64,000 nucleotides of DNA from a virus (Duplodnaviria > Heunggongvirae > Uroviricota > Caudoviricetes), in IMG/VR virus record IMGVR_UViG_2541047712_000002. One strand, given 5' to 3'. Below, piece by piece: positions 50,600-52,882 of this stretch. A model generated the notes under the pieces. That model searched no databases. It saw nothing but the letters and a program-made list of their open reading frames with translations, and was not told where the DNA came from. The translations under genes and the position numbers were made by a program. Numbering within the stretch: the stretch's first letter is position 1; each line of letters opens with the position of its first letter.

Positions 50600-51083
50600 C
50601 CAACCACTGCGGTGAGTAGTCTGCTCACCGCATTCGTATCCAGCTCATTATCCACTGTAGTCAGTAACAAAACCTTCCTACATATCTGCTAACCACTGTA
50701 GCGAGTAGACAGCCTTTCATTCGCATCAAACAACCACTATGGTGAGTATTGGAGTGAGATGTCCAGCGGGTATCCACTATGGTGAGTAAGCCTTTGCTGT
50801 TTTCAGTGGATATCCACTCGCCACAGTGGATACGCTCAAAGATGAGGGCGACAACAACCACTATAGACAGTAAATTTTCCAAGATACCCAGTGACCACTA
50901 ACCTCGCAGCCCTTGTTTCATCAGTGTTAGTGATCACTAACATTTAATTCAGTATTTGCATTCTACTGCCTACAGTGGTTATCAACAGATAACGATACTC
51001 ACTATAGTGGATAGCGAATTACAGATATAAGTGAGGCTCACTACAGTGGATAGTGAGCCTTACTACTAACTACAGTGGTTGGG
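50600..51083. repeat. iteron array downstream of repA (copy-control, incA-like locus)
   Basis: about 12 copies, both orientations, of core CCACT(A/G)(T/C)(A/G)G, e.g. AACCACTGTAGCGAGTAG, AACCACTATGGTGAGTAT, TCCACTATGGTGAGTAAG, CTACAGTGGTTATC, CTCACTATAGTGGATAGCG, CTCACTACAGTGGATAGTGAG. Confidence 0.6.
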
Positions 51084-52139
51084 CTATTTGCGAGTCTTTG
51101 CCTTGCGCAACTCTTCGAGAAGCGCCAGTTCTTCTTTACTCAACATGACCATTTTGCCTTCTTTTTCGTCAGGCACAACGTCGATAATGTCATCTTGATT
51201 CTCATCTGGGAGGCTATATTCCGTCTCATCATTATCGGTTTTTGTTGATATTTGTGCCTGGCGTAACTTTGGCCGCCTATAGTGGATGACGAAGTAGACC
51301 GAGTTTCCGCGCTTAACTTCCGTGTAATCGAGATATCCTATCTCTCGCAGCTGTTCCATAGCCTTTCTTACCGTCGCATTCTGAGTAATAGTGCGACTTG
51401 TCAGATTAAGTCTGGCGCGTAAACGGGCTAGTGATATTGGTGCCGGATCAGGCGGCAAACTTTCAATAAAAGTATAAAGCGCCTGAGCGGATTCTTTTCT
51501 TGAGAGTTCGTTTATAGCCCGGAGTTGCAGAAGAACCTTTTTGTCGAACTGGTAGAGTTCGAAAATCTTGGGATCTGCTTTCAGTTCGACCGTATCGTGC
51601 TTGACACTATATTTTGCCGTTTGCACAAGATGCGTTACGTAAAACTCATCAGAGCCTTTGCTACGGAACGAGATGGTATTTGTGGCAATACGGCTTAGCG
51701 AACTGTCCAGGCGTTTGCGTAACTTCGCTGATGACCTGGCGGTCGGAATGCCACACAGCCTTACAAACTCAACGAACGGCAACGTGACAGTATCGCCAAC
51801 AACCTTGTGTTTGGCAAACGCGTGGATTATTCCCACCCACGTTTTAAAGTCGTTATCCATATCAAGCCGAAGGCCAGAGATCCTTATGTCTTCGTACCCT
51901 TCGGCTTTTGCCAGAGACAGCTGTTTGAGTTCAGCAGAGGCATCCATAGAGACCATTTGCCCCTTTCTTCCTCTGGATGTCGATTTCAGCGTCGGAACGA
52001 AGAGGCCCAGACGCATCAAAGCAACAGGCTGAACAGTGTTATTAGTGTTAGGAACCAACGTAACAACTTCGCCTGTCTTTTTATCTGTTTCTGAAAATGC
52101 TTCAACGATCGCTATGTTTTTATTGCCGTTTTCGCTCAT
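51084..52139 (-). CDS. repA: plasmid replication initiator RepA (iteron-binding)
   Basis: 351-aa minus-strand ORF flanked on both sides by iteron arrays; winged-helix-like composition; position equivalent to P1/F-type RepA. Confidence 0.6.
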
Positions 52140-52185
52140 TCCAAATGTCTCTTGTTATTCGACGGCTTTGGTGGCCTTTGCTGAT

Positions 52186-52310
52186 TACAGTGGATAGTAG
52201 CACTCATCACAGCGGTTATCCTACCGTCTATAGTGGTTTTTCTCCTCTCTATAGTGGTTGCTTTGCTCCCTATAGTGGATTATTCGCTCTCTATAGTGGA
52301 TATCGATCAT
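52186..52310. repeat. six direct iterons at ~21-bp periodicity upstream of repA (promoter/origin iterons)
   Basis: TTACAGTGGATAG, TCACAGCGGTTAT, GTCTATAGTGGTTT, TCTCTATAGTGGTTG, TCCCTATAGTGGATT, TCTCTATAGTGGATA in head-to-tail register. Confidence 0.65.
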
Positions 52311-52560
52311 GTCTGAAGGCAGATGGCACAACGGTTTGAGGTGGGCGGGGATCTTATTGGGTCTTTATGGGTCTCTTTGGTTCTCTTTGTGATCTGAATT
52401 ACTGGATCGGGCCTGTGGATAAAAATCAGAGGATTTCAAGAACAGGTAACTCTACTCTTCTGTGGATATTTAAGGACATAAGAATCATGACTAAGAGTAG
52501 AGTTTAAAATATATCTATGTATATCAGTATGTTAATGAAGAATTAAGTCATTAAGTTATC
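52300..52560. promoter_or_regulatory. putative origin core: AT-rich segment with DnaA box(es) and GATC sites
   Basis: DnaA box TGTGGATAA at 52414-52422 (complement of TTATCCACA), near-match TGTGGATAT at 52451-52459; GATC at 52305, 52350, 52391, 52405; AT-rich 52480-52560. Confidence 0.5.
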
Positions 52561-52577
52561 CATAAAAGACAATGTGC

Positions 52578-52690
52578 TCTACTCTCTACAGTGGATATAT
52601 ACAGCTCTCCAGAGTGGTTGTTTTACTCTTCATAGCGGTTATTCAGCTCTCTACAGAGGTTTCTTTGCTCTCCATAGTGGATGGCAACAC
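52578..52690. repeat. second set of five iterons
   Basis: CTCTACAGTGGATAT, CTCTCCAGAGTGGTTG, TCTTCATAGCGGTTAT, TCTCTACAGAGGTTTC, TCTCCATAGTGGATGG at ~22-bp spacing. Confidence 0.55.
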
Positions 52691-52723
52691 CCTTTCAGAC
52701 CAGTAACCGCAACGGCTAGAGGC

Positions 52724-52782
52724 GATCGGGGATCTCTTTGGATCTTCTATTTGATCTTACTTGGGATCTCTTATTTGGATCT
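52724..52782. promoter_or_regulatory. cluster of six GATC (Dam) sites in 59 bp
   Basis: GATCGGGGATCTCTTTGGATCTTCTATTTGATCTTACTTGGGATCTCTTATTTGGATC; adjacent DnaA-box-like AGTGGATAA. Confidence 0.5.
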
Positions 52783-52882
52783 ATCCAGTGGATAACTGGG
52801 ATAAGTAAAACAGGCAAATGCAGATTAAGGTATGCCTAATGAGTTATCGTAGCATCGGCCAATAACTACTGAAAAAACGATT

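Follow-up and report, generated by a model that had tools for sequence, protein, structure and literature searches.

A segment of viral DNA spanning positions 50600-52805 very probably constitutes the replicon by which an SSU5-like phage-plasmid is maintained as a plasmid prophage, and its features are consistent with a theta-type, iteron-controlled replicon of the P1/RepFIB family. This segment lies within a stretch of 64,000 nucleotides (hereafter ‘the window’) from a Caudoviricetes virus, IMG/VR record IMGVR_UViG_2541047712_000002, and positions are counted from its first letter. The replicon itself is already catalogued: judged by its sequence, it is the IncFIB type of the SSU5/pHCM2/pMT1 group, and it is nearly identical to many public records. 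What the present analysis adds is a site-level map and a two-module view of the origin. We infer the replication function by homology, from the features described below.

Escherichia phage Cyrano (pLF82) matches the region 50400-53000 at 99.8-99.9% identity, as do many plasmids of Escherichia coli, Escherichia albertii and Shigella (100-125 kb), and near-identical elements exist as plasmids, with dozens known in E. coli and E. albertii. At a greater distance, the replicon region is approximately 83% identical to those of SSU5, pHCM2 of Salmonella Typhi, pMT1 of Yersinia pestis, and plasmids of Enterobacter and Citrobacter. Most of the window aligns with phage Cyrano, collinearly and at 92-99% identity, and the aligned stretches include genes for tail proteins, lysis, ParA, helicase, primase, ligase, integrase, repressor, DnaE, UvsY, a gp32-like single-stranded DNA-binding protein, RecA, RepA and SbcCD. 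Given this gene content and collinearity, we consider the window to be part of an SSU5-like phage-plasmid. Typing in PLSDB assigns the near-identical and related records to IncFIB, which is a typing of those records rather than of the window, and the SSU5 supergroup has been typed as IncFIB in published work (PMC7969092; bioRxiv 10.1101/2025.09.12.675607). The features of the predicted replicon are as follows.

50600-51082, both orientations: predicted incA-like control array of 12 iterons (14-26 bits with the origin-iteron matrix)
51084-52139, minus strand: repA, an open reading frame (ORF) of 351 amino acids, predicted to encode an iteron-binding replication initiator with Rep_3 WH1 and WH2 domains
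51269-51289, plus strand: iteron-like sequence inside repA (15.7 bits; codons I-H-Y-R-R-P), of uncertain status
52177-52303, plus strand: proximal iteron block, six direct iterons (matrix scores 17.8-27.4 bits)
52347-52410, no strand: proximal GATC-heptamer region, partly decayed, with GATC at 52350, 52391 and 52405
52414-52422, minus strand: perfect DnaA box TTATCCACA at the outer end of the proximal module
52426-52577, no strand: inter-module spacer of 152 bp, 70% A+T, with one-mismatch DnaA boxes at 52461 and 52556
52578-52684, plus strand: distal iteron block, five direct iterons (matrix scores 23.1-28.0 bits)
52724-52781, no strand: distal Dam cluster, six GATC sites in GGATCT heptamers spaced 7, 10, 12, 12 and 13 bp
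52787-52804, minus strand: distal DnaA-box pair, AGTGGATAA (one mismatch) followed by CTGGGATAA (two mismatches)

The initiator gene and its iterons

An initial annotation, made from the DNA letters and a list of ORFs, had placed repA on the minus strand at 51084-52139, and these coordinates are correct. It had also proposed a profile search of the protein against Rep_3 and RepFIB-type families. Both domains of the Rep_3 initiators (Pfam PF01051 and PF21205; N-terminal WH1 and C-terminal WH2 winged-helix domains) are present above the gathering scores, with Rep3_N matching amino acids 115-225 (42.3 bits, cutoff 22.4, E 1.3e-10) and Rep3_C matching amino acids 236-281 (22.6 bits, cutoff 21.1, E 1.3e-4). 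The protein shares 61% identity with the RepFIB RepA of F (E 3e-143), 49% with RepA of P1 (E 5e-93) and 91% with RepA of Salmonella phage SSU5, and the gene is annotated as repA in near-identical deposited records. By homology, RepA is thus classed as a Rep_3 winged-helix initiator and a close relative of the F RepFIB and P1 initiators. A search of NCBIfam gave no match for RepA or for the neighbouring 214-amino-acid protein, and a PDB sequence search with RepA returned only noise (Csm3, E 0.29) and no close solved relative. Lindler et al. reportedly found in 1998 that the RepA of pMT1 is similar to the RepFIB, RepHI1B, P1 and P7 initiators.

Replicons of the P1/RepFIB type have about five phased direct iterons upstream of repA, and here we find six plus five copies, all TTTGCTCTCTAYAGTGGWT on the plus strand and 21-23 bp apart, in agreement with the earlier count of about 11 iterons in two blocks. 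The proximal iterons start at 52177, 52199, 52220, 52241, 52262 and 52283 (spacing 22, 21, 21, 21 and 21 bp), and this block is probably the operator/promoter region of repA. The distal iterons start at 52578, 52601, 52622, 52643 and 52664 (spacing 23, 21, 21 and 21 bp), and in number and position they correspond to the five iterons at the origins of P1, F RepFIB and PhiR41_1.

The iteron consensus, whose quantification had likewise been proposed, was represented by a 21-nt weight matrix built from the 11 upstream iterons only, with which both strands of the 64-kb window were scanned at a threshold of 14 bits. Every one of the 24 matches falls within 50600-52684, and the other 61.9 kb of the window gave none at or above the threshold on either strand. 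More than half of the matches (13 of 24, all within 50600-51289) are independent of the training set, with 12 located downstream of repA and one inside it. When the sequence of 50595-51300 was shuffled, the matrix found a mean of 0.01 matches and a maximum of 1. Thus a single consensus of 19-21 bp, in 23-24 copies, is confined to the surroundings of repA.

The claim of about 12 further iteron-like copies in both orientations at 50600-51083 is therefore borne out by a matrix that was not trained on them. Six are in minus orientation (50600, 50648, 50689, 50730, 50770 and 50854) and six in plus orientation (50793, 50813, 50962, 50994, 51033 and 51062). The four that adjoin the repA stop codon, plus those at 50793 and 50813, share the orientation of the origin iterons, and the remaining six are inverted. 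The inverted copies are mostly 40-41 bp apart, and spacing across the array as a whole is approximately 30-41 bp. The intragenic iteron-like site at 51269 was found in all relatives compared, and its coding sequence accounts for this conservation.

A gap in the downstream array holds a perfect 18-bp palindrome centred on GATC (50925-50942, TGTTAGTGA|TCACTAACA). It is specific to this lineage, as SSU5, pMT1 and pHCM2 carry the non-palindromic GTAACCACTAACA at this place. What is conserved at the locus is the direct repeat ACCACTAAC (at 50893 and 50933), which resembles two degenerate half-iterons with 40-bp spacing.

The tandem origin modules

The initial annotation had described the two iteron blocks as separated by an AT-rich segment with a DnaA box and GATC sites. 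All of these parts are present, but they are arranged as two tandem modules rather than as one split origin. The sequence of 52685-52805 recurs, in more diverged form, at 52304-52430, and so the upstream region reads as two complete tandem copies of a P1-oriR-like module, each composed of iterons, GATC heptamers and one or more predicted DnaA boxes. In the copy nearer to repA, half of the GATC sites have been lost.

Segment 52685-52805, the GATC/DnaA half of the distal module, can be aligned base by base with its counterparts in the P1 oriR, the origin of F RepFIB and the SSU5-like phage PhiR41_1, and the string GGATCTATCCAGTGGATAA in its DnaA end is identical to P1. Six GATC sites (52724, 52731, 52741, 52753, 52765 and 52778) lie within 58 bp. 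As had been noted from the letters (for 52724-52782), this is a dense cluster, and we confirm it as the densest of the window, with the next best 60-bp window holding three sites and a Poisson expectation of 0.013 over all windows. The six sites are invariant in SSU5, pMT1, pHCM2 and pE16EC1016-4, and they can be aligned with the five Dam sites annotated in the P1 oriR. The adjoining DnaA-box pair occupies the position of the tandem DnaA boxes of the P1 oriR.

The proximal GATC region can be aligned both with its distal counterpart and with the origins of P1, F and PhiR41_1, and three of its heptamers read GGGTCT or GGTTCT in place of GGATCT. The DnaA box at its outer end is one of only two perfect boxes in the 64 kb, and SSU5, pMT1 and pHCM2 have one mismatch at this position (TGTGTATAA). 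Boxes with one mismatch are also found at 52461, 52556 and 52787 of the window. Predicted DnaA boxes thus occur at the outer edge of each module (52414-52422 and 52787-52795), which is where P1/RepFIB-type origins have theirs.

Comparison with relatives reveals that origin elements are conserved and spacers drift. The proximal iteron block is 86-90% identical to those of SSU5, pMT1 and pHCM2 and the distal block 84-87% across this family (84-90% for iteron blocks overall), whereas the inter-module spacer retains 62-65%. The distal GATC/DnaA segment is 75-78% identical, with its six GATC sites unchanged, and the proximal GATC-like/DnaA segment is 87-95% identical, making the GATC-like region the most conserved non-coding piece in the family.

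The least stable 40-mer of the duplex-stability profile (52505-52544) is located in the spacer. We nevertheless rejected the spacer as a conserved unwinding element, since its A+T richness is confined to this lineage (70%, versus 56-60% in SSU5, pMT1 and pHCM2). Within the spacer, 52455-52472 (CTCTTCTGTGGATATTTA) resembles a degenerate iteron joined to a DnaA box with one mismatch, and at the same place SSU5 has CTGGGGATAATGTGTGG, which is reminiscent of a decayed tandem DnaA-box pair.

A promoter scan produced 8 matches, with 4.4 expected. The best of these (52535->52508, 10/12) was rejected as the repA promoter, given its position in the unconserved spacer and its lack of conservation in relatives. 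The proximal iteron block holds a single match, a weak sigma-70-like sequence on the minus strand (52306->52279, 9/12). An Rfam scan of 50300-53000 found no RNA family. GC skew was also discarded as an origin indicator, because it does not switch near 52.5 kb and instead tracks gene orientation.

The overall organisation had been likened to the oriR-repA-incA arrangement of P1 and F, and this likeness is supported by the order of the parts, the origin alignment and the RepA homology. The curated P1 record reads, towards repA, a DnaA site, five Dam sites and five iterons with PrepA, followed by repA and nine incA iterons. DnaA boxes, Dam heptamers, five phased iterons, repA and a mixed-orientation control array therefore occur in the same order in P1 and in the window. 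P1 iteron copies were located only by their 9-mer core TGTGTGCTG, which detects 7 of the 9 annotated incA copies, three of them in origin orientation at the repA stop codon and the rest inverted, as is the case here. P1 differs in having one origin module rather than two in tandem, 14 iterons rather than 23-24, and a RepA of 286 rather than 351 amino acids, the longer protein having N- and C-terminal extensions. The P1 iteron on the repA strand, which we take to be GATGTGTGCTGGAGGGAAA, differs from that of the window.

The closest characterised initiator is that of RepFIB from F/P307, in which iterons BCDD'D'' lie upstream and E-K downstream. The F replicon resembles that of the window in its related iterons (ACTGACYAYAGTTTATG against ACTCTCTAYAGTGGAT), its five upstream iterons, its tandem DnaA boxes and its downstream control iterons in both orientations, and it has five GATC sites at 11-bp spacing. 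It differs in possessing a single origin module and in the 3' half of its iteron, and on the latter ground the specificity and incompatibility group of the window replicon are expected to be other than those of F RepFIB.

Among phage-plasmids, the SSU5/pHCM2/pMT1/Cyrano-pLF82 replicon is the same element with an identical architecture. The full layout (six plus five iterons, six GATC sites, the intragenic site and 13-18 downstream iterons) was found in SSU5, pMT1, pHCM2, an Enterobacter plasmid and pE16EC1016-4. Compared with SSU5, pHCM2 and pMT1, the window has fewer downstream iterons (12), a more A+T-rich spacer, a perfect proximal DnaA box and a distal DnaA end that reads like that of P1 and PhiR41_1.

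We surveyed the number of modules in a small set of relatives. P1, F RepFIB, a Salmonella IncFIB plasmid, a Pantoea agglomerans megaplasmid, a Klebsiella IncFIB plasmid and PhiR41_1 each have a single module. Two modules are present in the SSU5/pMT1/pHCM2 group, in pCS2 of Cronobacter sakazakii and in pPV989-167 of Pantoea vagans. These last two plasmids share the iteron core CTACAGTGGWT and the two-module upstream layout with the window and, unlike it, are not phage-plasmids, and theirs are the RepA proteins closest to that of the window among the non-phage plasmids (77.6% identity for pCS2 and 70% for pPV989-167). Given this distribution, the duplication seems to characterise one RepFIB subclade rather than phage-plasmids in general. 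In pairwise scores of the short GATC/DnaA cores, the distal core groups loosely with P1 and PhiR41_1, and the proximal core groups with nothing outside its own clade.

Elements of the PhiR41_1/CMS-2020a type have an SSU5-like backbone as well and share with the window the GATC cluster, the DnaA boxes and the gene for the 214-amino-acid neighbour (window 52694-53000; PhiR41_1 1400-3232) at approximately 81% identity, and they have a different RepA (48.8% identity) and different iterons (ACCGCTGACAGCATAC). With the origin end shared and RepA and iterons distinct, the comparison shows that the part of the replicon that sets specificity has been swapped at a conserved origin core.

Proposed function and alternative readings

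By analogy with P1 and RepFIB, RepA monomers would bind the phased origin iterons and, together with host DnaA at the flanking boxes, would open the adjacent GATC-heptamer region, which would let host DnaB and DNA polymerase III load. Dam methylation of the heptamers would be needed for firing, and SeqA on hemimethylated sites would block immediate re-initiation. RepA bound to the repA-proximal iterons would repress the repA promoter, and the downstream array would titrate RepA and handcuff the origin iterons, resulting in low copy number and incompatibility. Control in RepFIB has been confirmed to lie with the downstream iterons, and those upstream make up the origin (PMC11983097). Lytic replication would be the task of the phage-type helicase, primase, ligase and DnaE. 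Genes for DnaE, helicase and primase had been noted elsewhere in the window, and they are indeed located, along with the ligase gene, in the parts that are collinear with Cyrano.

Some points weigh against this interpretation. Binding, opening, dependence on Dam, SeqA and DnaA, and handcuffing are all transferred from P1/RepFIB. The DnaA boxes are imperfect in most relatives, and a repA promoter could not be placed with confidence from any of the matches. The choice of the firing module is a guess, and of the two GATC-like regions it is in fact the proximal one that is better conserved. Moreover, the RepFIB of F itself is nearly inactive owing to weak rep expression (PMC11983097), and therefore the presence of the parts is no proof of their activity.

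This precedent of an intact-looking but nearly silent FIB replicon, together with the full set of phage replication genes in the same window, might suggest that the RepA replicon is vestigial and that the element is maintained through its phage-type helicase, primase and DnaE. We judge this to be very improbable, because an intact repA is conserved with all of its sites across elements of E. coli, Salmonella, Yersinia, Enterobacter and Citrobacter, because Y. pestis pMT1 retains the RepA replicon, and because the region examined showed no other initiator of plasmid type. Even slimmer is the chance that the repeats at 50600-51082 are a partition centromere, or a binding array for some other protein, instead of control iterons for RepA. 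Their 40-41 bp spacing in place of 21 bp and their two orientations could be read in this way, but they score 14-26 bits with a matrix derived from origin iterons alone, the incA locus of P1 displays the same range of spacing and mixed orientation, and the ParA gene is approximately 37 kb away.

The roles of the two modules are a matter of greater doubt. Our best guess is that firing takes place at the distal module, with five iterons, six intact GATC sites and a box pair, and that the proximal module, with six iterons, half-decayed GATC sites and one DnaA box, serves mainly as the repA operator and as an additional target for handcuffing and titration. There is a considerable, although minority, chance that both modules are working origins, or that replication starts from the proximal module and the distal one is an accessory locus for control or incompatibility, and in either case the type of replicon would be the same. 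The only perfect DnaA box sits in the proximal module, whose six iterons are directly beside repA as in P1, whose GATC-like region tops the non-coding conservation, and whose counterpart in P. vagans pPV989-167 keeps four GATC sites. Against these points, all six GATC sites of the distal module are invariant and it has the five-iteron layout of every single-module relative, whereas three heptamer GATC sites of the proximal module are lost throughout the SSU5/pMT1/pHCM2 clade. It seems unlikely that one module has no function and is passively carried as the remnant of a replicon swap or of a duplication. Such a history would agree with the SSU5-like backbones that have the more distant RepA and a single module, which abuts the same neighbour gene and shares only the GATC/DnaA end, and with the fact that the distal end of the window reads like P1 and PhiR41_1 while that of SSU5 reads like F, which indicates recombination at the junction. 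However, both iteron blocks fit the consensus of the present RepA, both have been kept while the spacer between them drifted, and the two-module arrangement is retained in plasmids with RepA proteins of only 70-78% identity. We also offer, tentatively, the idea that in the tandem oriR duplication the P1/RepFIB design has a functionally specialised variant that has not been described, shared by the one RepFIB subclade that comprises SSU5/pHCM2/pMT1, Cronobacter pCS2 and Pantoea pPV989-167. One copy would be a Dam/SeqA-controlled origin, and the other, having shed its GATC sites, a methylation-independent operator and handcuffing copy. If true, this would represent a second layer of copy control, possibly with a bearing on the switch from one mode to the other, plasmid or lytic.

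Neighbouring genes and significance

The genes that flank the replicon (50382-50594 and 52883-53527, both on the plus strand) are conserved beside it in SSU5, pMT1 and pHCM2. In Cyrano, the flanking genes are annotated as an ASCH-domain protein and a P1 Cra-like protein, and a Pfam search at E<=0.01 gave no match.

Farther away, 40993-41411 on the minus strand is a full-length match to the Rfam cspA thermoregulator (187.6 bits, gathering score 78). It covers an ORF for a CspA-like cold-shock protein (41018-41329, minus strand), at a place between DnaE and HicB where Cyrano is unannotated. An island of low GC content (33-37%) at 26999-31265 on the plus strand carries an apparent chaperone-usher fimbrial operon that encodes a 213-amino-acid subunit, a 222-amino-acid chaperone, an 809-amino-acid usher and a 171-amino-acid subunit. 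Because this island does not align with Cyrano, we regard it as element-specific cargo. Two transfer RNA (tRNA) genes are matched by Rfam at 22898-23061 on the plus strand, where Cyrano annotates three (Asn, Thr and Ser) at the collinear position. Beside the tRNA genes, a 445-amino-acid ORF with a predicted membrane segment (23693-25030, minus strand) likewise lacks alignment with Cyrano.

The understanding of iteron replicons is not changed by these findings, and the two-module origin is a modest comparative point. The map of iterons, Dam sites and DnaA boxes should be useful for annotation, given that the public records examined mark repA only, and for reading copy-number mutants. It should also be of use in designing curing or incompatibility cassettes, for which the downstream array would be the logical choice (PMC11983097). 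Cyrano is maintained at approximately 5.5 copies per cell (PMC9928086), and some SSU5-like phage-plasmids carry resistance genes (PMC7969092; bioRxiv 10.1101/2025.09.12.675607). The replicon described here would be what keeps SSU5-like phage-plasmids in the plasmid state, including pHCM2 of S. Typhi and pMT1, a virulence plasmid from Y. pestis.

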